Source: Roseateles asaccharophilus (GTDB lineage Bacteria; Pseudomonadota; Gammaproteobacteria; Burkholderiales; Burkholderiaceae_C). From it: 32,000 nucleotides of DNA. This document shows positions 5,014 through 30,383 of the stretch, piece after piece; position 1 is the first letter of the stretch, and each line of letters begins with the position of its first letter. The stretch is from contig NZ_JAVDXV010000006.1 in NCBI RefSeq assembly GCF_031458115.1, positions 382,276 through 414,275 of the forward strand, read 5' to 3'. The translations under genes were made by a program, and so were the position numbers. Below the pieces are notes generated by a model. The model saw only the letters and a list, made by a program, of their open reading frames with translations. It ran no database searches and was not told the origin of the DNA.

Positions 5014-5104
<91 letters not shown>

Positions 5105-7996: not shown

Positions 7997-8441
7997 ATGT
8001 CGCTGACCCATCTGCCCCCCGACGCCCGTCCGCGCGAGAAACTGCTCGCCCGCGGCCCACAGGCGCTGGCGGAGCCGAGCTGCTGGCGTTGCTGCTGCGC
8101 ACGGGGCTCAAGGGCATGCCCGTGCTGCAGCTGGCGCAGAGCCTGCTGGACCGCTTCGACGGCTGGGCCGGGCTGCTGGCGGCCAGCGTGCAAGACCTCG
8201 GCAAGGTCAAGGGTCTGGGGCCTGCCAAGCGGGCGGAGATCGCCGCCGTGCTGGAGATTGCGCGGCGCTCGCTGAACCAGCAGCTGGCCGAGAAGCCGGC
8301 AATGAACGACAGCGACACGGTGAAGACTTATCTGCGCCTGCACCTGGGCGGGCTGGGACACGAGGTGTTCGCGGTGCTGTTCCTGGATTCGCAGCTCAAG
8401 CTCATCGCGATGGAGACGCTGTTCCAGGGCACGCTGGCATC
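7997..8441 (+). pseudogene. radC: radC (RadC/YicR JAB-domain family) 5' fragment, interrupted by the prophage and also frameshifted near 8068-8072
   Basis: Frame 2 gives MSLTHLPPDARPREKLLARGPQALA. Frame 1 continues ..AELLALLLRTGLKG...EVFAVLFLDSQLKLIAMETLFQGTLAS. The homology stops at 8441. Confidence 0.85.
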
Positions 8442-8464
8442 GATCAGCGTGCTGTATTTGCGGA
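8442..8464. repeat. Left terminal inverted repeat (attL, phage-derived P' arm)
   Basis: GATCAGCGTGCTGTATTTGCGGA is the reverse complement of 20680-20702 with one mismatch. It is preceded by TC (8440-8441). Confidence 0.8.
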
Positions 8465-8498
8465 AATCGTGGCCTCCGCTCCGTGCGGCGTTACGGAG

Positions 8499-8529
8499 AA
8501 TTATGTGAATCTACATAATTATGTGAATC
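8499..8529 (+). repeat. Tandem direct repeat AATTATGTGAATC x2 (18-bp register) in an AT-rich patch
   Basis: Exact 13-mers at 8499-8511 and 8517-8529. Confidence 0.8.
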
Positions 8530-8544
8530 AGCATAACGCCTCGT

Positions 8545-8783
8545 AATGACGCACTGAGCGGCCCGCGGCAGGCGACAGCCCGCAGGGCAGTGACTCGCGG
8601 CCGCAGGCCGCTCCCCGCCGGTACGGCAGTGACTCTGATTGCGGCCGCTCAGCCTTTGCCGGAGGCAATGACTCTCAGCCCGCCGCAGGCGGGCTGCCAG
8701 GAATCATCCAGTGACTCGCCCCGCCGGCCAGGCGCCGCCGGAGGCGTGACTCTCGAAAACGCCCTTCCCTGCAGGTCGTTTTC
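8545..8783 (+). repeat. Periodic array of (G/A)TGACTC cores, each followed by a GC-rich hairpin (putative ori/packaging/iteron region)
   Basis: Cores at 8590, 8629, 8668, 8711 and 8746 (spacings 39, 39, 43, 35), plus a degenerate ATGACGC at 8546. Hairpins include 8597-8611, 8676-8696 and 8755-8783. Confidence 0.75.
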
Positions 8784-8809
8784 CACCCCTTCGATATCAG
8801 CGCCCCGCG

Positions 8810-8820
8810 CGCTATACAGG
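8810..8820 (+). promoter_or_regulatory. CGCTATACAGG motif, copy 1 (candidate phage promoter element upstream of the g5p operon)
   Basis: Same motif at 12141, 14911 and 16691, each upstream of a plus-strand phage gene or operon. Confidence 0.35.
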
Positions 8821-8955
8821 TTCAAGGGGGCCTTGAAAACAACAACAAGGTTCTGGGGCGCACCTTCCCCACTGTGAAGGTCGCCGGCGCGGCTCCAGCT
8901 CGCCCCCGGCCTACGCCGCAACTTCAACAACAACCGCTATTCCAAGGGGGAAATC

Positions 8956-9195
8956 ATGCTCAAAGTCGTCGTCTATCAAGCCCGCACCGCTCGTTCTGAA
9001 AAGACCGGTAAGGACTACGTCAGTCAGACCGTCGAAATCGTTCAGTCGCCTGATCGGCCGAACGTCACGATGCGTCGCTTCGCTAAGTCTGAAGCTGAGG
9101 CGCTCAAGCCCGGGCAGTACACCTGCAAAGTGTCCTTCTTCAACAAAGGACTTGACCTGTCGCAGTCGTTCTACGACTTCCAGCCTGCGAAGTAA
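8956..9195 (+). CDS. ssDNA-binding protein, Ff g5p-like
   Basis: 79 aa with AAGGGGG RBS. It starts MLKV.. and ends ..PGQYTCKVSFFNKG...FQPAK, paralleling M13 g5p as I recall it (MIKV...PGLYTVHLSSFKVG...LVPAK). Confidence 0.7.
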   Translation: MLKVVVYQARTARSEKTGKDYVSQTVEIVQSPDRPNVTMRRFAKSEAEALKPGQYTCKVSFFNKGLDLSQSFYDFQPAK

Positions 9196-9197
9196 GC

Positions 9198-9455
9198 ATG
9201 CCCGCCGGCTCGCTCGAGAACGTGATCGTCTGCCGGCCTTCTGCCACGCCAGCCGCTCCCTGCGGCGCCGGCGAGGCCCCGACGGTCCTTCAGGCGTATG
9301 TTCTCGCGCCCTCCAGCTCTTCGTTCGTCGACGCCGCTGCAGGCCCCTACGACTACGCCACGGGCGCCGCCTATTGGTCCGCAGCCTTCGTCTTCACCGT
9401 GTCGTTGTACTTGTGCACCCGAGTCATCGGCACCATCGTCAACATGGTTCGCTAA
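9198..9455 (+). CDS. Small membrane protein, unknown function
   Basis: ATG lies 2 nt after the g5p-like stop. There is a single C-terminal hydrophobic helix (AAYWSAAFVFTVSLYLCTRVIGTIV). Confidence 0.5.
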   Translation: MPAGSLENVIVCRPSATPAAPCGAGEAPTVLQAYVLAPSSSSFVDAAAGPYDYATGAAYWSAAFVFTVSLYLCTRVIGTIVNMVR

Positions 9456-9524
9456 CGCCGCTGGACGCATCCAGCAACCGCCGCGGGTCGGACACCCGCA
9501 CGCTTCAATAAGGAGAACAACAAC

Positions 9525-9740
9525 ATGAAGCTGAACCGTACCGCCGCGCTCGTCGCTGCATCCGTACTGGCCGCACCGGCCGCCTTTGCTGCCGGCCCTA
9601 GCGCTGGTGACCTGTCCAACTTGACGCCCGACGGCGCAACGATCATGACCGCGATTGGCGCCGTCGCCCTCGTGCTCATCGGCATCAACCTGGGCCTCAA
9701 GGGCTTCCGCATCGTCCAGTCCCTGGTCGGCAAGCGCTGA
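9525..9740 (+). CDS. Major coat protein, g8p-like
   Basis: AAGGAG RBS. Signal peptide ends in AFA. The mature ~48 aa has an acidic N-terminus, a hydrophobic core (IMTAIGAVALVLIGINLGL) and a basic C-terminus (KGFRIVQSLVGKR). Confidence 0.8.
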   Translation: MKLNRTAALVAASVLAAPAAFAAGPSAGDLSNLTPDGATIMTAIGAVALVLIGINLGLKGFRIVQSLVGKR

Positions 9741-9748
9741 TAGCGCAG

Positions 9749-9776
9749 AAGGGGCGGCTAACCCCGCCCCTTTCTC
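9749..9776 (+). terminator. Rho-independent terminator/attenuator after the coat gene
   Basis: GGGGCGG-CTAACC-CCGCCCC followed by TTTCTC. This is the typical position after an inovirus g8. Confidence 0.65.
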
Positions 9777-9792
9777 ATCAAGGGGGCCTTTT

Positions 9793-9882
9793 ATGACGAT
9801 CAACGAGCTCTGGTACCTGACGCTGTTCGTGCACGGCGTCATCTGCGCTTGCGCAGTCATCGCTGGCTTGCGGGGTCGTTGA
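9793..9882 (+). CDS. 29-aa hydrophobic protein, g7p/g9p-like minor coat candidate
   Basis: AAGGGGG RBS 6 nt upstream of ATG 9793. MTINELWYLTLFVHGVICACAVIAGLRGR. The stop lies 1 nt before the g3p-like start. Confidence 0.5.
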   Translation: MTINELWYLTLFVHGVICACAVIAGLRGR

Positions 9883-9883
9883 C

Positions 9884-11563
9884 ATGCGCAAGCTGCTCAT
9901 CGCTCTTCTAGCGTTCTCTGTCATCTTCTTTGCTGTTGAGCGCGTACGCGCACAGGCACTACCCTCTTCACCGTTCTCGATCACCGCTAGCGACGCGCTC
10001 ACACTTGCCCGCCAGTCATGGGGAAGTGCATCGCTCATCGTCGGTGGCGGCACCGCCGTCGCAACTACGCTAGCTACCGCTGCCGGCGGCTTGTTCGGTA
10101 TCACGCCTATCGGCTGGGCGGGCATTGGTCTCGTTCTGCTCGCTACAGTGTTGATGACAAGCGACGCCTCTGGCAACTCAATCGCTGTTGTCGTCTCTAC
10201 GCAAGACATCGACGCGTCGCCCAATCCAGACCTTGCTTCGGGCGGTCAGACAACCTCTGGCGTCAGCAACTACTACGCGCTTGCGCCGGTAACGGGCGGC
10301 ATCGTCAAATATATCTCTAGCTCTAGTTGGTCGGCAGTCGGCTCAGATATATTGTCAGAGCCCGCACTACGACTGCGCGCGTATATCGCAACGATGTTCG
10401 CCGTGCCTAACAGTTGGCTGGTCAATAGCATCACCCAGGTCGGCAATACATATGTTGCCAGCAACGGCGGCGATACAACTAATATTGCGTTGGGTCGCTG
10501 CCCGTCTACCTCTTCAGGTTGTGTCGCACTTATATTTACTGCGCCCGTCGGGACTACCAAAGCTGAGTTTGAGTCAGTAATACCGGCCCTGCCGCCGTTC
10601 GCTGCCGCAGCTTGGACGATTCGGCCTAGTGGCGGAGCTCGCCCCTATTTCGCCATCGCAGTTCCTCTGGTTCTCGTCAACGAGATTATCAACTGCGACC
10701 CTTCGACGAGTTACTACGAATACTCTACAGCCAGCTGCATTCTGCTAAAGCCTACAACTACTGAGCCGCTTTCCAACGGTATGTGCCGAGTTAGCTGGTC
10801 TACGGATGGCTGCCCGGTATTCAACCGGCAAGACCCGGACTGCGCTTCAGCAGCCATCACTTTGTCTTGCGGTAGTGCGTCAGTCGCGCCATCGGTCACT
10901 GTTCTTGATCGAGCCACGGGTCAGACAGTTACTACCTCGCGCCCTGCTGTCGCTAGCCAAGGCCAACCGGGCTCTGTAACTGTCAAAGAGCGTACTCCCA
11001 ACGCAGCAAATGGCACTACTGTTGAGCGCTTGACTACAACGCAGTACCAAGCCGCCCCGGCGGGTCAGCCGAAGCCTGCGCCCGTCACCAACGGCGCTAA
11101 CCAGTCGACGTTGCCGGGCACTGGCGCTAACACCGGCAGCACGCCTGTCGCGCAGGTATCTGTGAGCAACTGGCCCTCGGTCGTAAACGTTCAAGGCACG
11201 GTCACGTGCACGAACTGCTCGACCGCTCAACAGCCCGTCAATATCAACGTGCCCGACCGCTTCAAGATTGACGGCGAAGTTCCCGCTGACGCGACCGGCC
11301 TGCCTACGCCGCCTGAGGCCGCCCCGCCAGCCGGCTTCATCACGAAGCTCAAAGAACGCCTTGCCGGCTTCGCAAACATCGAGCTGCCGCCGCACACAGC
11401 CACGTGCCCGCGCCTGGACATCAGCTGGCACGCATGGGGCGTCAATCTCGACTTGTCTAACAACACGATGTGCGCGTTTCTCGAAGAGCACCGCACGCTC
11501 TTCCAGGGCCTCATGCACTTCGCTTACATCGCCACCGCGATCATCATCGTCTTGGGAGCCTGA
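9884..11563 (+). CDS. Adsorption/minor coat protein, g3p-like
   Basis: 559 aa with a signal peptide, paired Cys residues, Ser/Thr/Pro/Gly-rich linkers and a C-terminal membrane anchor (FAYIATAIIIVLGA). Position matches g3. Confidence 0.7.
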   Translation: MRKLLIALLAFSVIFFAVERVRAQALPSSPFSITASDALTLARQSWGSASLIVGGGTAVATTLATAAGGLFGITPIGWAGIGLVLLATVLMTSDASGNSIAVVVSTQDIDASPNPDLASGGQTTSGVSNYYALAPVTGGIVKYISSSSWSAVGSDILSEPALRLRAYIATMFAVPNSWLVNSITQVGNTYVASNGGDTTNIALGRCPSTSSGCVALIFTAPVGTTKAEFESVIPALPPFAAAAWTIRPSGGARPYFAIAVPLVLVNEIINCDPSTSYYEYSTASCILLKPTTTEPLSNGMCRVSWSTDGCPVFNRQDPDCASAAITLSCGSASVAPSVTVLDRATGQTVTTSRPAVASQGQPGSVTVKERTPNAANGTTVERLTTTQYQAAPAGQPKPAPVTNGANQSTLPGTGANTGSTPVAQVSVSNWPSVVNVQGTVTCTNCSTAQQPVNINVPDRFKIDGEVPADATGLPTPPEAAPPAGFITKLKERLAGFANIELPPHTATCPRLDISWHAWGVNLDLSNNTMCAFLEEHRTLFQGLMHFAYIATAIIIVLGA

Positions 11564-11566
11564 CGC

Positions 11567-11863
11567 ATGTACGCAGCACTTCTCGCCGTCCTGGGCCGCG
11601 TTTTTGCGTGGGTCATGGGCGCCGGCACGCTCAAATGGGCCGTTGGAGCATTCTTGCTCTTCGGCGTCACGATCCTCGTCGACATCCTGCTCGACCTGCT
11701 TCCCACTTGGTTCGACCCAGCCCAGCTCGTCGGCGCGACCTCCGTCTTCACGCCCTCGATCTGGTACTTCCTGGACTACTTCGCTTTCCAGACCGGGCTC
11801 TCGATGATGTTTGCCGCGTACGCAGTGCGTTTCTTGATTCGTCGTCTCCCGGTCATCGGCTAA
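11567..11863 (+). CDS. Integral membrane minor coat protein, g6p-like
   Basis: 98 aa, multi-helix hydrophobic, immediately after the g3p-like gene. Confidence 0.6.
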   Translation: MYAALLAVLGRVFAWVMGAGTLKWAVGAFLLFGVTILVDILLDLLPTWFDPAQLVGATSVFTPSIWYFLDYFAFQTGLSMMFAAYAVRFLIRRLPVIG

Positions 11864-11897
11864 GAAGCAGTGATCCCCTCTGGGGACGCCTAAACGG

Positions 11898-12140
11898 CTA
11901 ATCCGGCTTCGTCAGCTCAGCGCTGTGTACTCGCACCGCGTGCGAACCGCTCACTTGACACGTTAGTTTGTCGCCGACTCGCAGATCGCGCCAGTCCACG
12001 CCTTCCACACTCTTCCCTATGCTGAGCTGCAGCCCGCCTTCTGACTCAGCTCTTGCTATCTCGAGCTCTGCGACGACTGCCGTCACTGTCGCCGTGACAG
12101 TCTGCTGTTCGTAGTTCATGTGCTGATGTTGCCTGCGCAT
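11898..12140 (-). CDS. Doubtful reverse-strand 80-aa ORF in the g6-g1 gap
   Basis: It is the only ORF in a 303-bp plus-strand gap. There is no convincing RBS at either ATG (12140 or 12119), and it uses rare codons. Confidence 0.3.
   Translation of the reverse strand: MRRQHQHMNYEQQTVTATVTAVVAELEIARAESEGGLQLSIGKSVEGVDWRDLRVGDKLTCQVSGSHAVRVHSAELTKPD
12082..12098. promoter_or_regulatory. Inverted repeat GTCAC-N7-GTGAC
   Basis: GTCACTGTCGCCGTGAC, about 45 bp upstream of CGCTATACGG motif copy 2. Confidence 0.35.
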
Positions 12141-12150
12141 CGCTATACGG
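12141..12150 (+). promoter_or_regulatory. CGCTATACGG motif, copy 2 (upstream of zot/g1p)
   Basis: CGCTATACGGTCAAAAGGGGG parallels CGCTATACAGGTTCAAGGGGG at 8810-8830. Confidence 0.35.
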
Positions 12151-12166
12151 TCAAAAGGGGGACCGC

Positions 12167-13261
12167 ATGGCTATTCATGCAATCACAGGCGTTATGGGCT
12201 CTGGCAAGAGCTACGAAGCCGTTTCAGAGAAGATCGTTCCAGCGCTTCGAGACGAGGCCGCTCGTCGCGTAGTCACGAACATCGAAGGCTTGTCTGTGCC
12301 AGCTATCGCTGCGTACATCAACAAGCCTGAGAGCGAGGTCGAAGCACGCATCGTTCGAATCAGCTACGACCGCGTCAGCGAACCTGGCTTCTGGTACGAC
12401 CCTGAGCACGGCTCGGGGTCCGAAACCGTTGTCCAGCCCGGCGACCTGGTCGTACTCGACGAGGTCTGGCGCTATTTCAACCGTGGCGACAAACTGCCCG
12501 AGGATGCAATGCGCTTCTTCCGCATGCACCGACACTACGTGAGCGAGCAATCGGGTCTCACCTGCGACGTTGTGCTCATCAACCAGAGCTTTCGCGGTAT
12601 ACACCAGGACATTCGCGACGTAGTCGAGTTGCAGTTCCAATGCCGCAAGCTCAAAGCCCTCGGACGGCCTCAGAACTACCAAGTGCTCTTGCTGGAGGGC
12701 GGCGAGCGCAAGCCCTCGCACGACTACATTCGCACTTACTCGAAGAGGGTCTTCCCGCTATACAGCAGCTACGCCGGCGGCCAGGGCAAAGAGGCTGTCG
12801 ACAAGCGGCAGAGCGTCTTCAACACGCCCTTCTTCAAGGTCGTTCTGCCGCTGTTCGCGGTCCTCATGGTCTTCGGCGTCTACAAGACGTACAGCTACTT
12901 CGCCGACATGGGCAAGCCGGCTGACGGCGCAGCGCTCGTAACCCCATCAGCTGCTGCGTCATCGCCTTCGGGCCTGCCGACGCCGCCGTCAGCTGGTGCG
13001 GCTCCTGCGCCTGCGCAGTCAGCTTTCAGCACTGCGTCTGGCTCCGCGGCCGATTGGCGCCTCGTCGCACGCTACAGCGTCGGTGGCTTGCCTGTTGTCG
13101 TCATGGTCAACGCCAGTGGCCAGTACCGAACTGTGACGAGCGGCAGCTACACGCAGGGCGCGTCCACTGACGTCTCAGTACAGATTCCGCTCGATCCGTC
13201 TGATCGCGCTACGCCTTGGTCTGGCCCTGCTCCTGCATCGACCAAGGGGGCCGCGCGATGA
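12167..13261 (+). CDS. Zot/g1p-family assembly ATPase
   Basis: N-terminal Walker A GVMGSGKS, DE Walker B (VVLDEVW), a central TM helix (VVLPLFAVLMVFGVY) and a periplasmic C-terminal part. Confidence 0.85.
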   Translation: MAIHAITGVMGSGKSYEAVSEKIVPALRDEAARRVVTNIEGLSVPAIAAYINKPESEVEARIVRISYDRVSEPGFWYDPEHGSGSETVVQPGDLVVLDEVWRYFNRGDKLPEDAMRFFRMHRHYVSEQSGLTCDVVLINQSFRGIHQDIRDVVELQFQCRKLKALGRPQNYQVLLLEGGERKPSHDYIRTYSKRVFPLYSSYAGGQGKEAVDKRQSVFNTPFFKVVLPLFAVLMVFGVYKTYSYFADMGKPADGAALVTPSAAASSPSGLPTPPSAGAAPAPAQSAFSTASGSAADWRLVARYSVGGLPVVVMVNASGQYRTVTSGSYTQGASTDVSVQIPLDPSDRATPWSGPAPASTKGAAR

Positions 13262-14610
13262 ACCGCAAGATCGCCCTCATCGGCGGCTTCCTCGTTGTGA
13301 AGAAGATCGTCGTCATCGCGGTGCTGGCGATGCTCGTCGGGTCGAGTGAAGCCCAGCCGGCGCTCAAGCTCCCGCCGCCTCCGGCGCCGGTGCCTGCCTC
13401 CGGCTTTCAGACGTTCGGCACTGGTCTACCCCTTGCCGAGTTCTTGAAGATCGCTCTAGGCGAGCTCTCTGGCCGCCCCTACGTTCTCGCTCCGGAGGTG
13501 GCTGCTTCGTCTCAGCTTGTTGCTGCAGACCTGACTAAGTCGAAACTCAAAGACCCGCTGCCGCTCGTCCGGGCCGTCATTGAGCCGCTTGGCCTCGAAA
13601 TCCGAGACCTCGGCGGCGTTCTGCTCGTCGACAAGCGCCGCACTGAGGCATCGAAGAAGAGTCCAGGTGACACGTTCACCTACCGCCCTCGGCATCGCTC
13701 TGTCAACAGCCTTTCGACGTACTTCAATATGTTCCCCGAGCTCGCTTTCAGCTACTCGGGCGGCCTCGCTGTCCGCGCCCAGACCGTCTCCAGCTCCGAC
13801 TCCACCGAGCCCGGCAAGGCTCTGCAGCCGACCATGAGTAGCGGCGCCACCACTTTTAGCGCGCAGGACAAAGACCCGAGCTTTCTCGTCGTCGCCGGCG
13901 ACGCCGCAGAGATTAGTCGTTTCAAGACCTTGATCGTTGAGTTGGATGTGCCTGTTCCCCAGGTGCTCGTCAAGGCCTATGTGTTTGAAGTCCGGACTAC
14001 AGACGCTCGCGATGGCGGTGTGAAGCTCGTCGCTGATCTGCTTGGCGGCCGCGTCGGCTTCAACCTCGGCGGCGCGTCCAGTTCTACCACGCCGGATGCT
14101 CTACGACTCACTCTTCCCAACGTCAGTCTTGCTGTGTCTGCGCTGGCTGCGGACAGCAGAGTGCGCCTCGTCAGCTCGCCGGTTCTCAGAGTTGATGACA
14201 GCACTACCGCTAGCGCTACTGTGGGCACCTCTACGCCCACTCTGGGTGCTATCGTCAGTCAGAACGGCTCGACCCAGCAGAGCGTGTCATATCAAGAGGC
14301 CGGCGTTTTGCTGTCTGTTAGCGCGCGAGTCCTTGAAGCGAGCATCCGTCTTACCATCTCGCAAGAGCTGTCTAGCTTCGTCAAAACGGACACCGGGCTC
14401 TCGAACACTCCGACTAAGCTCCGCCGCGCTTTCAAATCTGACGTTGTCGCCCGTGACGGCGAAGCTCTTCTGCTCGGGGGCCTGACAGAAGCTCAAACGT
14501 CTGATGCCAAGCAAACCAGCTTCTTCGGCTTCGGCTCAGCCTCTAAGTCGACTTCAAGCTCTGAAGTCGTCGTGCTGTTGACTGCTACTCGTCTCGATCA
14601 GCAGCAGTGA
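13258..14610 (+). CDS. Secretin, g4p-like
   Basis: ATG 13258 overlaps the zot stop as ATGA. Signal/TM N-terminus and a C-terminal secretin-type domain (VLVKAYVFEV...RLVSSPVLRV...YQEAGVLLSV...ALLLGGL). Confidence 0.85.
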   Translation: MNRKIALIGGFLVVKKIVVIAVLAMLVGSSEAQPALKLPPPPAPVPASGFQTFGTGLPLAEFLKIALGELSGRPYVLAPEVAASSQLVAADLTKSKLKDPLPLVRAVIEPLGLEIRDLGGVLLVDKRRTEASKKSPGDTFTYRPRHRSVNSLSTYFNMFPELAFSYSGGLAVRAQTVSSSDSTEPGKALQPTMSSGATTFSAQDKDPSFLVVAGDAAEISRFKTLIVELDVPVPQVLVKAYVFEVRTTDARDGGVKLVADLLGGRVGFNLGGASSSTTPDALRLTLPNVSLAVSALAADSRVRLVSSPVLRVDDSTTASATVGTSTPTLGAIVSQNGSTQQSVSYQEAGVLLSVSARVLEASIRLTISQELSSFVKTDTGLSNTPTKLRRAFKSDVVARDGEALLLGGLTEAQTSDAKQTSFFGFGSASKSTSSSEVVVLLTATRLDQQQ

Positions 14611-14866
14611 GTGAGTCGATCCACATCTGCCATTCCTCATAAAACACACACTCCGTGCCGTCTTCGAGAAGCAGCAAAGCTCGCCTACTTCGCGCGAATT
14701 GAACGCATTTGTCTCTAACTTCTTCACCCATATCAGAGAGCACTACGTACCGAGTGCCACATGGCGTTGCGTGTACCGGTGTGAATCTCTTCTTCGACGC
14801 CACACAGCCTCCAAGCGTAAATATATGTAACAAGCCCGGGTCAGCCAAAAACGCCCACTGAATCAA
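14585..14866 (-). CDS. Orphan hypothetical protein (AT-rich cargo)
   Basis: 93-aa ORF convergent with and overlapping the secretin 3' end by 26 nt. No recognisable motif, and the start is uncertain. Confidence 0.4.
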   Translation of the reverse strand: MIQWAFLADPGLLHIFTLGGCVASKKRFTPVHATPCGTRYVVLSDMGEEVRDKCVQFARSRRALLLLEDGTECVFYEEWQMWIDSLTAADRDE

Positions 14867-14889
14867 GGCAGTTCTTCTAGCGCCTCCAA

Positions 14890-14905
14890 GTCACGATTTC
14901 GTGAC
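14890..14905. promoter_or_regulatory. Palindrome GTCACGA-TT-TCGTGAC (operator candidate)
   Basis: 7-bp perfect arms, 5 bp upstream of CGCTATACAGG copy 3, in a divergent intergenic region. Confidence 0.45.
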
Positions 14906-14910
14906 CTCGA

Positions 14911-14921
14911 CGCTATACAGG
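14911..14921 (+). promoter_or_regulatory. CGCTATACAGG motif, copy 3
   Basis: Identical 11-mer to 8810-8820. It lies upstream of the ORF starting at 14972. Confidence 0.35.
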
Positions 14922-14971
14922 TATGTACGGGCTGCGCGTTGCAGCCCCACCCAACCCTGAAAGGCGCTTCC

Positions 14972-15415
14972 ATGAACTTCGAATACTTTGACGACGGTTG
15001 CCATCACAATCTCGGCGACATCAATACAAATGGATATGTTTTCGTCGCATCTCAAGATGAAAACATTTCGTCTAGTGAGCTTGAATCTGCTGCATATGAA
15101 GCAGACGCGCGTCGCTTCTGCGCTGATTTGAAGACAATTCGTCGCATCAGCATGCTACCTGTGACTTTTCTTACGGGGCACCATGTCGTAGCTTGCATTC
15201 GAGTTACTACAGCGTCTCGGACGTATTCGCTCTACACCAACGATTTTGGTGACAGCCTGCTTGATGAGTCGCACTACACATTGTTCTTCAAACGCAATTT
15301 CAGTCTCTTTCGCTACGATCTTCAGACTCCTCAAGGCCGGGCCGCTGCTCGTGAATATGTTCGTCGCAAGTTGAAGTTTTTGGCACAGCACGGCAAGCCT
15401 TTTGACGGTTATTGA
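14972..15415 (+). CDS. Orphan hypothetical protein (AT-rich cargo)
   Basis: ATG 14972 within ORF 14939..15415 (the track start is TTG). 147 aa (MNFEYFDDGCHHNLGD...) with no recognisable motif. Confidence 0.5.
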   Translation: MNFEYFDDGCHHNLGDINTNGYVFVASQDENISSSELESAAYEADARRFCADLKTIRRISMLPVTFLTGHHVVACIRVTTASRTYSLYTNDFGDSLLDESHYTLFFKRNFSLFRYDLQTPQGRAAAREYVRRKLKFLAQHGKPFDGY

Positions 15416-15528
15416 GTACGCGCGGCGGTCGGCGGACAGCGAGCGAGGAGCGGACGGACACACATGCCTCGCCCGCACCGCAGCGAGGGTCCGTCGCCCG
15501 CCGCGACTCTTCAAAAACTCCAGTCCGG

Positions 15529-15711
15529 CTAGGCCGATTTCGCGCCCGTCAGTTTTGTAATTGCGTTCCTATACTGAATTGGAAGCGTGGTCACACTAGG
15601 GTACACATCGGCGGGCACTGGGGAGTGCCCGTCGTCCTTTCCGAATCTTTCTTCCACCTCGGCCGGCGTCAATCTGACGAACGGCCTCTTTTTCGCGTCA
15701 ATTTCGGTCAT
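15529..15711 (-). CDS. Small hypothetical protein, last gene of the reverse-strand operon
   Basis: 60 aa. Its ATG overlaps the upstream stop as ATGA (15708-15711). KKRPFVRLTPAEVEERF could be a ribbon-helix-helix, which is speculative. Confidence 0.45.
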   Translation of the reverse strand: MTEIDAKKRPFVRLTPAEVEERFGKDDGHSPVPADVYPSVTTLPIQYRNAITKLTGAKSA

Positions 15712-16088
15712 TCTTGATCTTCTTGATGCTCGCCCGCGCCCCGGCGCGGGCCCTGGTCCGGGTTTGCTTTCTTCGCTATCACTAGGTCGCCGACGACGTC
15801 AAACTCGATCTGCTGTCCTGGCCGCAGGTCCATAGCTCTACGTATCGCTGCGGGTATCGTTATTAAGTTCCGCCTGTTCATGGTCGAGTGCCATTGCATA
15901 CTCTGCTTCGCTCGGTCGACTATCGTCTCGACGCGAGGAACAAGCTCAGACTTCAGCGCTTCTGCGATCCAGCGCACTTCGTGCTCAGACGGGTCGTGAA
16001 TTCGAATCTGCGCCACGATCTGCTGCACGAGCTCTGACAGCACTCTGTTGCGCTCAAACTGAATCATTTCTTCGTCACTCGGGATCAT
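15708..16088 (-). CDS. Protein with a C-terminal AbrB/SpoVT/MazE-type DNA-binding domain (candidate phage regulator or antitoxin)
   Basis: NLITIPAAIRRAMDLRPGQQIEFDVVGDLVIAKK fits the looped-hinge-helix pattern. The likely start is ATG 16088 (MIPSDEE..). The track ORF extends to 16130. Confidence 0.55.
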   Translation of the reverse strand: MIPSDEEMIQFERNRVLSELVQQIVAQIRIHDPSEHEVRWIAEALKSELVPRVETIVDRAKQSMQWHSTMNRRNLITIPAAIRRAMDLRPGQQIEFDVVGDLVIAKKANPDQGPRRGAGEHQEDQE

Positions 16089-16434
16089 TTTTGATCCCAA
16101 AAGCTCGGTACGCGGCTTCTCTAGACACAATGTGCTTGTTCTCGGGCGCTGACGCTGCTGCGATCACGCGCAGCGCACCTTCCGCAGTCTTGAACCGCTC
16201 TTCTGTCGTGCGGATGAGCCATCGCACGTCTGCTCTCGTGAGCGCCCAGCACTTCTCGTTCGACTGCCGCATCAGCGGCCGCGCCAGGTATGCGACTTTG
16301 AATCCAGCACTGTGCGCCCGCCTGCGTGTTGCCACGCTTACAAGCTGATCCGCGAGGTCGTTGAGCTTCTCGAAGCGCAAGAACATCTGCCCTTCGTTGT
16401 CGAAGTCCGTCATATCCGCACAGTCTTGGTGCAT
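16075..16434 (-). CDS. Hypothetical protein, first gene of the reverse-strand regulatory operon
   Basis: 119-aa ORF divergent from rep, overlapping the next gene by 14 nt. An alternative start is at 16413. No motif recognised. Confidence 0.5.
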   Translation of the reverse strand: MHQDCADMTDFDNEGQMFLRFEKLNDLADQLVSVATRRRAHSAGFKVAYLARPLMRQSNEKCWALTRADVRWLIRTTEERFKTAEGALRVIAAASAPENKHIVSREAAYRAFGIKNDPE

Positions 16435-16636
16435 TTCAATAGCTTGCCGCTATCGAAAAATCGACGGTTTCGCGCCTCCCGGCTGCATCGAGTTTTTGCA
16501 ATCCTCACTACGTCGGACAGCAGCCTGAGGCTGCATGACTCTACTCTAACGTCGGACGGCATGGGGAGCCTATCTTCTCTCGCTTCAAAAACTCGATGCT
16601 AGACCGTCGCTCCTGAGTCGGCAAAAAGCGCATTTC

Positions 16637-16648
16637 TTGCTATAGCAA
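16637..16648. promoter_or_regulatory. Perfect 12-bp palindrome TTGCTATAGCAA
   Basis: Read directly, in the rep/regulator divergent intergenic region. Confidence 0.4.
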
Positions 16649-16667
16649 AAACCAATCGACTTTCGGG

Positions 16668-16680
16668 GTCAAGACTTGAC
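16668..16680. promoter_or_regulatory. Palindrome GTCAAG-A-CTTGAC overlapping a TTGACA hexamer
   Basis: 6-bp perfect arms, 10 bp upstream of CTATACGGG motif copy 4 (16691-16699). Confidence 0.4.
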
Positions 16681-16690
16681 ATCGCCGGAC

Positions 16691-16699
16691 CTATACGGG
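16691..16699 (+). promoter_or_regulatory. CTATACGGG motif, copy 4 (upstream of rep)
   Basis: Shares CTATAC(A/G)GG with copies at 8812, 12143 and 14913. Confidence 0.35.
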
Positions 16700-16792
16700 G
16701 TGTACCCCCACAACGGCCCCGCGAGGTAGATCACAGCGCACTGCGCAAATCGAGGACATGAGTCGGATAGGGCCATCAACCCAGCCCTCCCC

Positions 16793-18736
16793 ATGTCCGC
16801 TTCTACTGCCATCTCCCCGGCGGAGCTTCTCCACTCTGCAGAGCTCAACGCCGCTCCCGCACCTTCATCTGCCTTCGGCCCGCTGCCCCTCGCAAAGGCG
16901 CTGCAAGCCGGCCTTCTCGCTGCACGCGCAGAGTTCTGCGGCGACCTTCCAGCCCACCTTATTGGCGCCACTGCGCCGGAGCGCTACGACGCCGCTGCTG
17001 CGACGGCTGAGCGCTTTCAAATGCTTCTGGGAACGGCGAGTGACGATCACGCTCTGCTTGACCGCCTTGTTCAGCTTGCGCAGGCCGATCTGGGTGGCTT
17101 CGCTTGGCGCAGCTCGACCGTCGCGTCGGCGGTCACCTCGAAGTTGATCGAGCGGCACAAAGTGGAGCTCAAGTCTGTCGCGGCCGTCTTTGAGTTCGAT
17201 GCTTCTGTGGGCGAGCGTGTTCTAGCTATCGCCAACGCACACCTCGGCCGTCCTGTTCCCGGCGACTCGCTTCAAACGAAGGTCTCGCGCATACTCGACC
17301 GCAAGTTCTGGCTTCGGCACTACTCAAAGCTCGCCCGCCAGCGTGACGAGTTCTCCTTCATCAAGTCCGGCTTCGTTTCTGCGGCTGGCGAGAAGTACAT
17401 CAGCGACCGCGGTCTGTCACGCCACTCCGAAGCTCTGGCGGCACAGCAAGCGTGGCTCGAGTCGACCGTCCTCATCGACCACAGCGCAGCAGCTTCTACT
17501 GGCAAGTTCAAGTACATCAAGCTCGCTGACGCAGCGAAGCGCGCGGCGCACCGTGATGCAAGCCTGTGGGCGTTCCTCACCGGCATCGAGCAGCTCAGCA
17601 TCGAATCCAACCTCGAATGCGCGCTCGTCACCCTTACGGCGCCGTCATCCTTTCACGCCTGCCCCGGCACTCGCTCCAAGTTGTTCGACGGCGTCAGCAC
17701 ACCCCTCGACTCGCACAAGTACATCGCTAGCCGCTGGACGGCCTTCCAGCGCGATCTTGACAACGAAGGCCTCGCGGTCAGCGGTGTCCGCGCTACTGAA
17801 CCGCAGGGCGACGGCACATGCCATTGGCATGTCTGGCTGCACTATGCGCCCGACACTCTGCCGAGCATCCTCTCCCGCTTGGCTCACTACTTCCAAGGCG
17901 ACACCGCTCGCCGTGTCGAACCTGTAGTCGTTCGTCAGGTCGAAGCTGACTTGGCCGGCCGCAAGGTCAACAAGAAGACCGGTGAGCGCTTCAGTGAGTC
18001 GTTCAGCGTTCTGCGCGCCGGGGCGCTCGTTCAGCGTTCAACGAAGCCAGCTGCTCAGGTCGACTTCAGCGTCATCAATCGCTCGTACGCGTCCGGCGCT
18101 ACTTACATGGCCAAGTACACGGTCAAGTCGTTCGATCAGTCCGAGAACAGCAAGCGTGTCCACGCATGGCGCTGGACCTGGGGCGTACGCGGCTTCCAGC
18201 TCTTCGGGCTGCGCAACTGCCGCGGACTCTGGGATGAGCTCTACCGCGCCACTGAGCGCCCCTTCGATTCGCGCGCCGCTGCGCTGTGGGACGCTGTCCA
18301 CGCTGAGCCCGGCAAGCACACCCGCCAGGTCATCAACCCGCTTACTGGACTGCAGGAGGTTGAGCACTACGAGGGGGGCACCGCTGCATTCATTCGCCTT
18401 CAAGGCGGCCTCGCGGCTGCCGGTGGCGCTGCAGGCCTGCGCATCAAGATCACCTACGTGCCTGCTGAAGGACGCTATGGCGACTTCATGAAGCGCCGCC
18501 GCGGACTTCGCATCATGCTTGGCGACACGGTGCTCTACAGCTTCAAAACCCGCGAGCCGGGGCGCTGGGTCATGTCTGCCGAGGGACGCGTTGAGCAGAC
18601 CTTCAGCGCTCTGCGCCGCATCCCGTTCGTCGATGCGGCAGAGCTGATCGAGCTGACCTGCGCTGAGTTCAAAGCCCTCCTCGCCAGCTATGCGGCCGGC
18701 GTCGACCCGTTCACCGGCGAAATCCTCGACGCATAG
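16793..18736 (+). CDS. Rolling-circle replication initiator (HUH endonuclease)
   Basis: 647 aa. HUH-type motif GTCHWHVWLHY (HWH at 17822-17830) and tyrosine motif YMAKYTVK (Y..KY at 18104-18118). Confidence 0.75.
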   Translation: MSASTAISPAELLHSAELNAAPAPSSAFGPLPLAKALQAGLLAARAEFCGDLPAHLIGATAPERYDAAAATAERFQMLLGTASDDHALLDRLVQLAQADLGGFAWRSSTVASAVTSKLIERHKVELKSVAAVFEFDASVGERVLAIANAHLGRPVPGDSLQTKVSRILDRKFWLRHYSKLARQRDEFSFIKSGFVSAAGEKYISDRGLSRHSEALAAQQAWLESTVLIDHSAAASTGKFKYIKLADAAKRAAHRDASLWAFLTGIEQLSIESNLECALVTLTAPSSFHACPGTRSKLFDGVSTPLDSHKYIASRWTAFQRDLDNEGLAVSGVRATEPQGDGTCHWHVWLHYAPDTLPSILSRLAHYFQGDTARRVEPVVVRQVEADLAGRKVNKKTGERFSESFSVLRAGALVQRSTKPAAQVDFSVINRSYASGATYMAKYTVKSFDQSENSKRVHAWRWTWGVRGFQLFGLRNCRGLWDELYRATERPFDSRAAALWDAVHAEPGKHTRQVINPLTGLQEVEHYEGGTAAFIRLQGGLAAAGGAAGLRIKITYVPAEGRYGDFMKRRRGLRIMLGDTVLYSFKTREPGRWVMSAEGRVEQTFSALRRIPFVDAAELIELTCAEFKALLASYAAGVDPFTGEILDA

Positions 18737-18929
18737 CGCCTCGCAAGTTCGAATCCGCCTGATCCGCTCAGGCCCACACACCCCGCACCCGCGGGGCGCA
18801 GCCACTGGCGAGCCTCTGAAGTGTGATGGGATTCGAACCAACCCTCAGGTCTGAGCTTCGCCGATCCGCGCGGCGCTTCGCGCGGGCGACGCCTCGAAAC
18901 CGGCTTAACCGGGCCGGCAAGGCGCCTCA

Positions 18930-18953
18930 GGCGGGCCCCGTAGGGGTCCCGCC
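18930..18953. terminator. GC-rich hairpin between convergent rep and recombinase genes
   Basis: GGCGGGCCCC-GTA-GGGG(T)CCCGCC. There is no clear U-tract, so terminator function is uncertain. Confidence 0.35.
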
Positions 18954-18991
18954 CTTGGATAGATATGCGTAACTTTCTAACCCTGAATTTA

Positions 18992-20611
18992 CTAGGACTT
19001 TTTGAGGCTCGGCAGTTCAAGCTCACCTTTCAGGCTTGCAGCCCAGGCCGGCTGCGCGTCGCCCTGCGCTTTCACCCCGAGCGGTATCGTCAGCAGCTGC
19101 TGCGAGTTCTTGAACTGAACTGCGACTAGGTCATACGCCCAGAGCCAAATCACGTCCACGGCTCGTCGTAGTCTGTTGTTGCAGTCCGCGCGTAGACGCA
19201 TCGCATCGTCTGACGTCTCGAACAGCACTGCGATGACTTGCTCTGCGTAAGCCGTGTCAAATAGCGAGTTTGGGTTGACTGCCAGCTGCGCTTTGAGCTC
19301 TTCGATGACGTTCTCAAGCTGCTCACGTTCAGCGGTCAACCTGGCAATGTCTTGAAGTACCTCGGGCACGGCGCCCACGGCTCTGCTGACTGCTACGACG
19401 TTTGCTATTGCGGTCTTCACGTCAGCGAGCTTTGACTCAGCTACCGCAACTTCTTTCACCGCTGCGTCTTTGTCGTACCCCAGGCCCAGGTGCGCTCCCG
19501 CGTACGCACATATGTCTAAGATGACCTGCGCTTCGGTCTTCAGCGCTGACATCGTCTTGCACTTCGTAATCCCGGCCGCTTTTGAAGAGCAGATCAGCTG
19601 TGCCCTGCTCCAGCCGCGGTACTCGACTTTTCGCTGTATCGACGCGCCACAGTGCCCGCACCTGAGCAGTCCACTGAATACGTGAAAGTAGTTGCCATCG
19701 CGTTTTGGCGGCGCTGTTTTGCGCGTCTGGACTGACGATCTTGCGAGGTGCCAGAGGTCGTCACTTATCACCCGAGGGTAGTAATCCTTGATCGGTGGTC
19801 CTACTGCTACAGGCACGTCACTCTCAAGCTCTTTCAACACGTTCTTGCCTTTGAGCTTGTGCTGAGCCTCTCCCAAAACTGCCCTGTTCTTCAGGATGAT
19901 TTGCGGCATCCTCGAATGCCAGTGTTCTGTTGTCATCGAGGTCACGCGTGTAGGTACCGGCCAGCCTTCTGCGTTCGCTAGCTTCGCAATCGTAGGCCCG
20001 CCCATTCCGCGGCCAGCCGCTTCGAACACTTTTCTCACGGACTCAGCCAGCTCTTCGACAACTTCCCAGTCGCCTCCCGCTTGACTTCTTCTCAGCCACC
20101 CCGGAGCTGAGCCGAAGACCTTCTTGCCTTCTTCTCGTTTTCGCTTGAACGTCTCGCTTACACGCCCGCCCTTGCGAAAGCTCTCTTCGTGCGCTTGCGC
20201 GAACGCAAGCATCATGCCGATCAGAGCGGCGATGTTGTTCAGCGACTTCTTCGTGTAGATGTGCCCGTCGAGCAACGTGACGATGTTCACGTCTTTGCGC
20301 AGGATCGACTTGACCAGCGTGTCTGCATCGTCAATCTCTTCGCGACTGAGCCGGTCGAAGTGTTCAATCAGCAGATAACTGCCCTTCGGCACCCTGCCCT
20401 CTTCCACCTGCTCCAAGAACGCCGCGAGGTTGCCTTTCGTTCTGTGCTTGCCGGTGAAAGCACTCAAGCCGAGGTCCGCGACGCTCTCATCGAGCTTCAT
20501 GCCGTGCTGCGCGCACCACCGCTCTGCTGCATCGCCCTGTCGTTCTTCTGAGCGCCCTTTTGATTGTCTTGCCGACGAAAATCGAACGTAGCTGATGACC
20601 CGAGGCTTCAT
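18992..20611 (-). CDS. Large serine recombinase (integrase)
   Basis: Resolvase-type N-terminus ([12 protein letters not shown]...[11 protein letters not shown]), a recombinase domain, a Cys4 zinc-ribbon (CGHCG...C..K..C) and a coiled-coil C-terminus. ATG 20611 is preferred; the track start TTG 20623 is possible. Confidence 0.9.
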
Positions 20612-20679
20612 GTCGATAGTCAAATCCTTGTTCCGAAGATATGGAATTCTAGTGCAGATCAGCGTTCAATATCTTCGAA

Positions 20680-20702
20680 TCCGCAAATACAGCACGCTCA
20701 TC
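20680..20702. repeat. Right terminal inverted repeat (attR, phage-derived P arm)
   Basis: TCCGCAAATACAGCACGCTCATC followed by TC (20703-20704). It is the reverse complement of 8442-8464 with one mismatch. Confidence 0.8.
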
Positions 20703-20933
20703 TCCACGACCGTTCACCCGCGCGAGGTCGTCAAGCGCGCGCTGGCGCTGGGCGCGGGTGCCGCCATCCTGGCGCACAACCACCCCAGCGGCCACGCCGA
20801 GCCGTCGCGCGCCGACGAGTTGCTGACGAAACAGCTCAGCGACGCGCTGGCGCTGGTGGACGTGCGCGTGGTGGATCACCTCGTCGTGGGCGCCGGTGAT
20901 GTCGTTTCCTTTGCCGAGCGGGGTCTGCTGTGA
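20703..20933 (+). pseudogene. radC 3' fragment (JAB/MPN domain)
   Basis: ..[42 protein letters not shown]...[21 protein letters not shown] carries the canonical RadC C-terminal motifs HNHPSG and SFAE. Confidence 0.9.
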
Positions 20934-21006
20934 GCGCTGCGCCGGGCCGCCCCAAGCAAGCTCGCTCCCGCTTGGCGGGACAGGCCGCAGGCCGAAGGGT
21001 GCACCA

Positions 21007-30298: not shown

Positions 30299-30383
30299 GT
30301 CTGCCCCTCGCCCGATGAGTACATCGGCCGATCCCCCGAGGGGATAGCCGCTTGCCTGGGGCGGCCCGGCGCTGCGCGGCCTG

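Follow-up and report, generated by a model that had tools for sequence, protein, structure and literature searches.

A 32,000-nucleotide stretch of the Roseateles asaccharophilus genome (contig NZ_JAVDXV010000006.1, positions 382,276 to 414,275; hereafter, the window) carries a radC gene split in two by an insert of 12,263 bp. The insert is very probably a temperate inovirus, a filamentous phage, that integrated at radC codon 149 through its own large serine recombinase by conservative site-specific recombination. The evidence comes from the two junctions, from uninterrupted radC genes, from the recombinase and from related elements that sit at the same radC codon.

Junctions and the interrupted radC gene

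The 5′ fragment of radC (codons 1-148) occupies positions 7997-8439 and the 3′ fragment (codons 149-224) positions 20703-20933, both on the plus strand. At the left junction the sequence is GGCA-TC-GATCAGCGTGCTGTATTTGCGGA, where TC occupies 8440-8441 and the following arm 8442-8464; at the right junction it is TCCGCAAATACAGCACGCTCATC-TC-CACGACC, where the arm occupies 20680-20702 and TC 20703-20704. The two 23-nt arms, each bounded by TC, pair as reverse complements in 22 of 23 positions, with a sharp loss of complementarity at either end. When the whole window was searched exhaustively, two inverted pairs of 23-mers with at most one mismatch were recovered; one of them is the junction pair, which falls exactly on the two break points of a single gene. 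About 5e-4 such pairs are expected by chance (our own calculation, assuming uniform base composition), and a chance match is excluded. The G+C content is about 68% in the flanks and 53-65% between the junctions.

When the ends of the element are joined, the arms meet as a near-palindrome of about 48 bp (23+2+23 bp) with TC at its centre, giving the reconstructed phage attachment site (attP) ...GCACGCTCATC-TC-GATCAGCGTGC..., with a further attP-like unit (attP1, see below) directly upstream. The left attachment site, attL (8417-8464), thus consists of the radC half-site B, the TC crossover at 8440-8441 and the P2′ arm at 8442-8464, and the right one, attR (20680-20727), of the P2 arm at 20680-20702, the TC crossover at 20703-20704 and the radC half-site B′. 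A previous sequence-only reading had given these junctions, with 23-nt arms differing at one position, and had proposed a near-palindrome of about 48 bp around a non-palindromic TC; re-reading the sequence bears out the former, and the latter could be rebuilt. Its assignment of the site as a serine-integrase attP with a 2-bp crossover is supported by the three-domain recombinase that the element encodes, by empty sites that read GCA-TC and by seven relatives of the same layout.

Joining position 8439 to 20703 yields GCA TCC ACG ACC GTT CAC CCG in frame, as that reading had predicted for an excision performed in silico. With its N-terminal frame corrected, the repaired radC encodes a product of 224 residues that matches the UPF0758 N-terminal domain (UPF0758_N) and, over positions 2-121 of 121, the RadC JAB domain, whose motif HNHPSG...D lies in the 3′ fragment. 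In the protein database its 120 top-scoring matches all have this exact length of 224 residues and are 81-95% identical, and most are named as RadC of Roseateles or Pelomonas. The earlier proposal had called for an alignment of the repaired protein to such orthologues: all 120 align without gaps at the junction, and none has extra residues there, whether ISVLY-like, YSTLIS-like or other. The exact junction peptide is present in three of them (P0001, P0002 and P0007). The DNA of uninterrupted radC sites, which we retrieved, reads GCA-TC-GAC and shows the same synteny, with an FKBP gene upstream on the other strand and an Smr gene downstream; the empty site of the closest orthologue is ...GGCACGCTCGCA-TC-GACAACC.... 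The central dinucleotide corresponds to the first two bases of radC codon 149, which is polymorphic in the host genus: of the 120 orthologues, 68 have Ser at this position, 27 His, 15 Ala and 10 Gln. A Roseateles attB of the His allele, represented by L001, reads ..GCTGTCA-CA-CACGACG...

The 5′ fragment contains another lesion. Frame analysis showed that the first 25 radC codons (from 7997) are out of frame with the remainder, and a DNA alignment with four uninterrupted orthologues, with the gap at column 77, showed that codon 26 (GAC, Asp) has lost its C, a single base missing between 8073 and 8074. This deletion may have inactivated the gene a second time, or it may be a sequencing error. 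Because of it, precise excision would rebuild attB, the bacterial attachment site, and would not rebuild a functional radC unless the missing base is a sequencing error. The description of the target as an intact radC attB therefore holds for the site and would not hold for the gene.

At the other end, attR creates an open reading frame (ORF; 20595-20933, plus strand) predicted to fuse 36 phage-encoded residues to the 76-residue C-terminal fragment of RadC with its JAB motif HNHPSG. This ORF overlaps the 5′ end of the recombinase gene on the opposite strand.

The recombinase and its relatives at radC

The recombinase gene (18992-20611, minus strand) encodes 539 residues and lies against the right end of the element, with its ATG at 20611, 91 nt inside the right junction. 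Three domains score above the curated cut-offs: Resolvase (PF00239, 1.8e-19), Recombinase (PF07508, 2.7e-9) and Zn_ribbon_recom (PF13408, 2.9e-6). The catalytic serine lies within YVRFSSARQ, which fits the motif Y-x-R-x-S-S/T-x-x-Q. Over 29 relatives R14 and S16 are nearly invariant and Q20 is invariant, as are C322, C325, C345 and C355, the four conserved zinc-ligand cysteines. The AlphaFold (AF2) model is confident (predicted local distance difference test score, pLDDT, 84) and can be divided into catalytic and recombinase domains, a long alpha-E helix and a zinc ribbon, together with a coiled coil formed by helices 385-416 and 420-448, a helical hairpin inserted after the ribbon. Full-length Foldseek matches were obtained to the DNA-bound integrases of SPbeta (9dxh, 1.7e-16), phiC31 (9tep, 9e-14) and Bxb1 (9iu2, 2e-12); by sequence only, the link to solved integrase structures is weak (4e-5). 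These domains and the model identify the enzyme as a large serine recombinase. A protein annotated in Roseateles asaccharophilus (P0121) has the same sequence (100% identity).

Relatives of the recombinase (34-69% identity) were compared in 19 distinct genomic contexts, from Comamonas, Massilia, Rhodoferax, Thauera, Pseudorhodoferax, Rugamonas, Pseudoduganella, a gammaproteobacterial genome bin and several metagenomes. In all but two of these (17 of 19) the recombinase adjoins a radC fragment that ends at the codon split in the window, three codons ahead of the conserved motif V-H/Y-P-R-E; the remaining two are an Azonexus locus and a contig of 2.6 kb. Both junctions are present in seven relatives, whose elements measure 7.1-11.9 kb. 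From each of the seven a near-palindromic attP can be rebuilt around a single dinucleotide common to attL and attR, with radC repaired in frame. The attP arms were symmetric at 13-20 of 23 positions in the five relatives that were scored. This pattern places the recombinase in what appears to be an undescribed radC-specific clade that extends across Burkholderiales and beyond.

Among the highly varied cargo of these elements are restriction-modification systems, Abi, DndB, RepC, a D5-type primase and a TrwB coupling protein. The phage structural genes of the window are shared by no relative and its rolling-circle initiator (Rep) by only two, and the element in the window is the sole inovirus among the relatives examined. 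At four loci from other genera (L007, L018, L019 and L022) the cargo placed in this radC codon is of the defence type and includes Eco57I, XhoI, BsuBI/PstI and Eco29kI restriction-modification genes, DndB and an Abi C-terminal domain; radC looks like a hotspot for small defence islands in these bacteria. At one locus (L014, 7391-10001) about 2.5 kb separate the radC junction from the recombinase gene, pointing to a secondary insertion. The relative from Azonexus (L016, 34% identity) does not lie beside radC, and its recombinase presumably has a different target.

The half-sites of eight elements were compared, seven of them quantified; the sequences are related and non-independent, so the statistics are indicative only. 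Over the inner 10 bp, the half-sites of attP and attB matched best at shift 0 (0.46), compared with 16-30% at other shifts. The outer attB motif matched attP shifted outward by 6 bp in the B arm (0.55) and by 3 bp in the B′ arm (0.44). None of 500 shuffles reached these match values. In the serine integrase class the inner motif has the same register in attP and attB, and the outer motif lies about 5 bp further out in attP; in a Listeria integrase-attP structure the zinc-ribbon motif is reportedly farther from the centre than in attB.

On the radC sense strand the central dinucleotide of the relatives is CA, with a host codon CAx (Gln or His), and TC occurs in the element of the window only. 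Read in the recombinase sense, the centre is TG in the 14 tabulated elements that face the 3′ side of radC, and GA in the window, equivalent to TC on the radC sense strand and matching the host Ser codon TCC. Two elements (L008 and L010, one junction available for each) are inserted inversely, and in both the central polarity is flipped. This pattern is expected if the core dinucleotide is not read by the protein, in which case it need only match between the partner sites and sets polarity.

Proposed integration, its alternatives and a second attP-like unit

In the mechanism that we propose, integrase dimers would bind the 48-bp near-palindromic attP (23-bp arms around TC) on the double-stranded replicative form, and further dimers would bind the weakly symmetric attB in radC (..GGCACGCTGGCA-TC-CACGACCGTTC..). 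Both sites would be cut with a 2-bp stagger at TC, the half-sites would be swapped by subunit rotation, and religation of the ends would leave attL (8440) and attR (20703) with no bases gained or lost. Because the arms are nearly symmetric, the non-palindromic TC alone would set the orientation of insertion. The 2-bp stagger, the rotation, the use of the replicative form, current activity and a directionality factor for excision are parts of this scheme that we infer.

The crossover could instead lie in GCACGCT, which attL and attR share at -11 to -5; deletion across this heptamer keeps the length of the gene and its frame and would give an ancestral GTLISTT. We consider this highly improbable. 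Ile is found at that RadC position in none of the 120 orthologues, which have Thr, Ser or Ala there (the three closest read LAS), and empty-site DNA reads GCA-TC; on this orthologue and empty-site evidence the GCACGCT crossover was rejected. It would also produce an attP much less symmetric at its centre (GGCA versus GATC), and what the relatives share is the central dinucleotide and a few flanking bases, not GCACGCT. The shared heptamer is expected if the half-sites of attP and attB carry the same inner recognition motif in register. Formally, the same picture of terminal inverted repeats and a short direct repeat would be left by a transposon-type insertion, with the 23-bp arms as terminal inverted repeats and TC as a 2-bp target-site duplication, whereas serine recombinases do not duplicate their targets. 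To this reading we give hardly any credence: no transposase domain, DDE or other, was found in the ten largest ORFs of the element, whose sole recombinase is the large serine recombinase, and one codon of one gene is used across genera. The insertions also show a strong orientation bias that goes with dinucleotide polarity, which a transposon with symmetric ends would not display. The absence of a transposase and the tracking of dinucleotide polarity led us to reject it.

A different question is whether the element is still active. It may be a fixed, decaying prophage, the product of a past serine-integrase event that no longer excises or yields phage, which we regard as rather unlikely. The radC 5′ frameshift is expected of a permanently dead gene, and a free form or second copy is absent from every collection searched. 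However, all phage genes including the recombinase are intact ORFs with conserved catalytic residues, both att arms are nearly perfect (22/23), and the frameshift could be a sequencing error; moreover, decay concerns present activity and not the origin of the junctions.

Integration by the element's own serine recombinase thus remains our preferred explanation, and several points weigh against it, among them the relatedness of the half-site sequences noted above. The attP is a reconstruction and was not observed, because no free circle or second copy was found among phage records and viral and metagenome contigs. Megablast of the whole element against deposited phages returned no free circular form and none similar at the DNA level; the attP core had no exact match in viral or metagenome contigs, and the 22-mer at the boundary of attP1 and the TC-centred unit (attP2) was not found in either. 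Close relatives of the recombinase, Zot and Rep were not found in the viral contigs. No recombination directionality factor was identified in the element. The radC frameshift suggests long residence, so that the prophage may no longer excise, and the att region is more complex than the simple model, as a second attP-like unit abuts the used one.

This second unit, attP1 (20632-20679), is intact, lies inside the element and reads TCCGAAGATATGGAATTCTAGTG-CA-GATCAGCGTTCAATATCTTCGAA. It occupies the position where the relatives have their only attP, is identical at 41 of 48 positions to the reconstructed attP of one of them (L019), and has arms symmetric at 16 of 23 positions. It directly abuts the arm of the used site (20680-20702), and the two units align in register with 30 of 48 positions identical. 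From the attR centre to the recombinase ATG there are 37-48 nt in ten relatives and 91 nt in the window, a difference of one extra 48-bp unit. An internal second attP-like palindrome was found in none of 15 relatives, and each of the 17 relatives associated with radC has one site only.

The circular phage would then carry two tandem attP units with the cores CA and TC. Judged from its sequence, attP1 may work as a second key, may be left over from the ancestral site or may serve regulation as a binding site in the leader of the recombinase gene. It is conceivable, although we hold it doubtful, that attP1 (CA) and attP2 (TC) are both functional, as two keys for one integrase that would reach both major classes of radC allele. 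A site with CA only would fit about a third of the codon-149 alleles (37 His or Gln CAx codons among the 120 orthologues, against 68 Ser codons). Integration via attP1 would give an attL of the form B-CA-GATCAGCGTTCAATATCTTCGAA-TCCGCAAATACAGCACGCTCATC-TC-GATCAGCG... and an attR of the form ...TCCGAAGATATGGAATTCTAGTG-CA-B′; a second phage copy showing such use was not found in metagenome or viral contigs.

A promoter-like site was detected near the opposite end of the element. Two 18-bp direct repeats (AATTATGTGAATC...) at 8499-8534 form a sigma-70-like site, TTCACA-16-CATAAT (8527-8500, minus strand), identified as a consensus match. It points out of the left end, and in the circle it would read through attP into the recombinase gene. 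The same promoter scan found no equivalent in six relatives. In the closer relatives an attP arm comes within about 17 nt of the recombinase ATG, so a promoter must lie beyond attP, and only circularisation would connect it with the gene. Uncoupling of the promoter by integration is a weak lead.

Inovirus gene content, known systems and significance

Between the attL arm and the recombinase, the element reads as a filamentous phage. Its first gene (8956-9195, plus strand, as are the following genes unless stated) encodes a candidate single-stranded DNA-binding protein of 79 residues (gV-like), based on a weak match to phrog_2866 (E = 0.0026) and on gene order. The 71-residue major coat protein (pVIII-like, 9525-9740) matches phrog_2186 and phrog_6548 and has a signal peptide, a hydrophobic core and a basic C-terminus. 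It is followed by a candidate adsorption protein of 559 residues (pIII-like, 9884-11563), matched by phrog_7187 over its C-terminal part and positioned before pVI, and by a pVI-like minor virion protein of 98 residues (11567-11863; phrog_974, E = 2e-14). The pI/Zot morphogenesis ATPase (12167-13261; Pfam Zot 4e-25, phrog_197 3e-65) and the pIV secretin (13216-14610; Pfam Secretin, and phrog_1012, protein IV of M13, 2e-73) come next. A divergent accessory block (14585-16434) includes an AbrB/MazE-fold DNA-binding protein (15708-16130, minus strand; Pfam MazE_antitoxin 1.6e-7), a candidate phage regulator. The rolling-circle replication initiator (16793-18736) is a Phage_GPA protein (PF05840, 2e-29; phrog_91, nicking at the origin).

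The hallmarks of inoviruses are thus present (Zot, a pVIII-type coat protein, a rolling-circle Rep, a secretin and pVI), and 12,263 bp is within the range of the class, about 5-15 kb. By its gene content, the insert is a complete inovirus prophage. The sequence-only reading had described an inserted element, which is confirmed, and the inovirus identity is an addition to it. The Zot protein is at most 37.5% identical to that of any deposited phage, known inoviruses included.

The non-coding phage intergenic region (8465-8955, plus strand) contains repeats, the promoter-like site and a strong single-stranded DNA fold (z = -4.3), and it is a putative origin or packaging region. An imperfect palindrome of 86 nt lies at 8476-8561, and GTGACTC-containing repeats follow at 8586-8755, with three copies of GGCAGTGACTC at exactly 39-bp spacing and two further copies beyond; these may be Rep-binding iterons or origin repeats. 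Outside the element, the 21-nt sequence GCCGGGCCGCCCCAAGCAAGC occurs twice in inverted orientation (20941-20961, plus strand; 30350-30370, minus strand), 9.4 kb apart and with one mismatch; chance alone would give about 0.02 pairs of this kind. The first copy starts 8 bp past the radC stop, within an ORF with an Smr domain.

The recombinase resembles the integrases of phiC31, Bxb1, SPbeta (SprA/YokA) and Listeria A118 (LI integrase) in being a three-domain enzyme with a coiled-coil insert. As with large serine integrases, it is associated with an attP of about 48 bp with inverted arms and a non-palindromic 2-bp core, and with a shorter, weakly symmetric attB in a host gene; the identity that the sites share is confined to the core, and the outer motif is shifted outward in attP. 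The A118 and SPbeta prophages likewise split a coding gene (comK and spsM, respectively). Unlike these systems, the enzyme of the window is about 16% identical to solved large serine integrases (by structural alignment) and at most about 33% identical to any phage-encoded one. The host is a proteobacterium, the carrier is a small filamentous phage with single-stranded DNA rather than a tailed phage with double-stranded DNA, the target is radC, and there is a tandem attP-like unit.

Serine recombinases are counted among the integration genes of inoviruses in a large survey. In Ralstonia, the inoviruses phiRSM1 and phiRSM3 use their own serine recombinase for both integration and excision, with attP beside the recombinase gene; this Int is of the small resolvase/invertase type, and its attP shares a 13-base identity with a tRNA-Ser gene (PMC4471427). 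The element in the window is like phiRSM in carrying an inovirus-encoded serine recombinase with attP beside its gene, and differs in its 539-residue enzyme with recombinase and zinc-ribbon domains, its 2-bp core and its radC target. A tRNA-Ser(CGA) gene is intact at 5014-5104 (minus strand), 3.3 kb from the prophage, and is not used; a phiRSM-like use of this tRNA gene was rejected on that ground and because the enzyme and core differ.

A promoter joined to its gene only in the circular form has been described for TnpX of Tn4451/Tn4453 (Lyras and Rood 2000) and for ICEclc and ICEKp1 (PMC13023037). The present elements are similar in that the recombinase ATG lies within tens of nucleotides of the crossover in the ten relatives measured above (37-48 nt) and in that a promoter-like site is found across attP in the window; they differ in that this promoter is a consensus match that was not found in the six relatives scanned.

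In engineered systems (PMC10083194; PMC3936721), changing nothing but the core dinucleotide creates orthogonal site pairs for a single integrase. The pair of attP1 (CA) and attP2 (TC) looks like a natural version of the engineered dual att landing pads of Bxb1, phiC31 and Kp03. Those arrays are man-made, and in the literature searched a dual attP appears only as an engineered landing pad. The same literature holds no report of a large serine recombinase that targets radC in proteobacteria, of an inovirus in radC or of a natural tandem attP, an absence that is not proof; radC is likewise absent from the examined text and supplements of a systematic catalogue that covers large serine recombinases with their sites.

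The mechanism is therefore ordinary, and what is new is a large serine integrase, its undescribed radC-specific clade and a new inovirus carrier; the tandem attP is the only feature that could go beyond the ordinary. The junctions provide an attP/attB pair resolved to the base pair, together with seven natural variants, for an uncharacterised proteobacterial integrase, and these sites can be used in testing it as an orthogonal integrase for genome engineering. They also present radC as a conserved integration hotspot, where one recombinase clade delivers very different cargo (a filamentous phage, restriction-modification systems, Abi/DndB islands and mobilisable elements) to one codon. If the two-key attP is true, it would be the natural counterpart of engineered landing pads with orthogonal dinucleotides and would offer a serine-integrase element a simple route to a wider host range. 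A working tandem of CA and TC would show the core dinucleotide both limiting and expanding the range of hosts.

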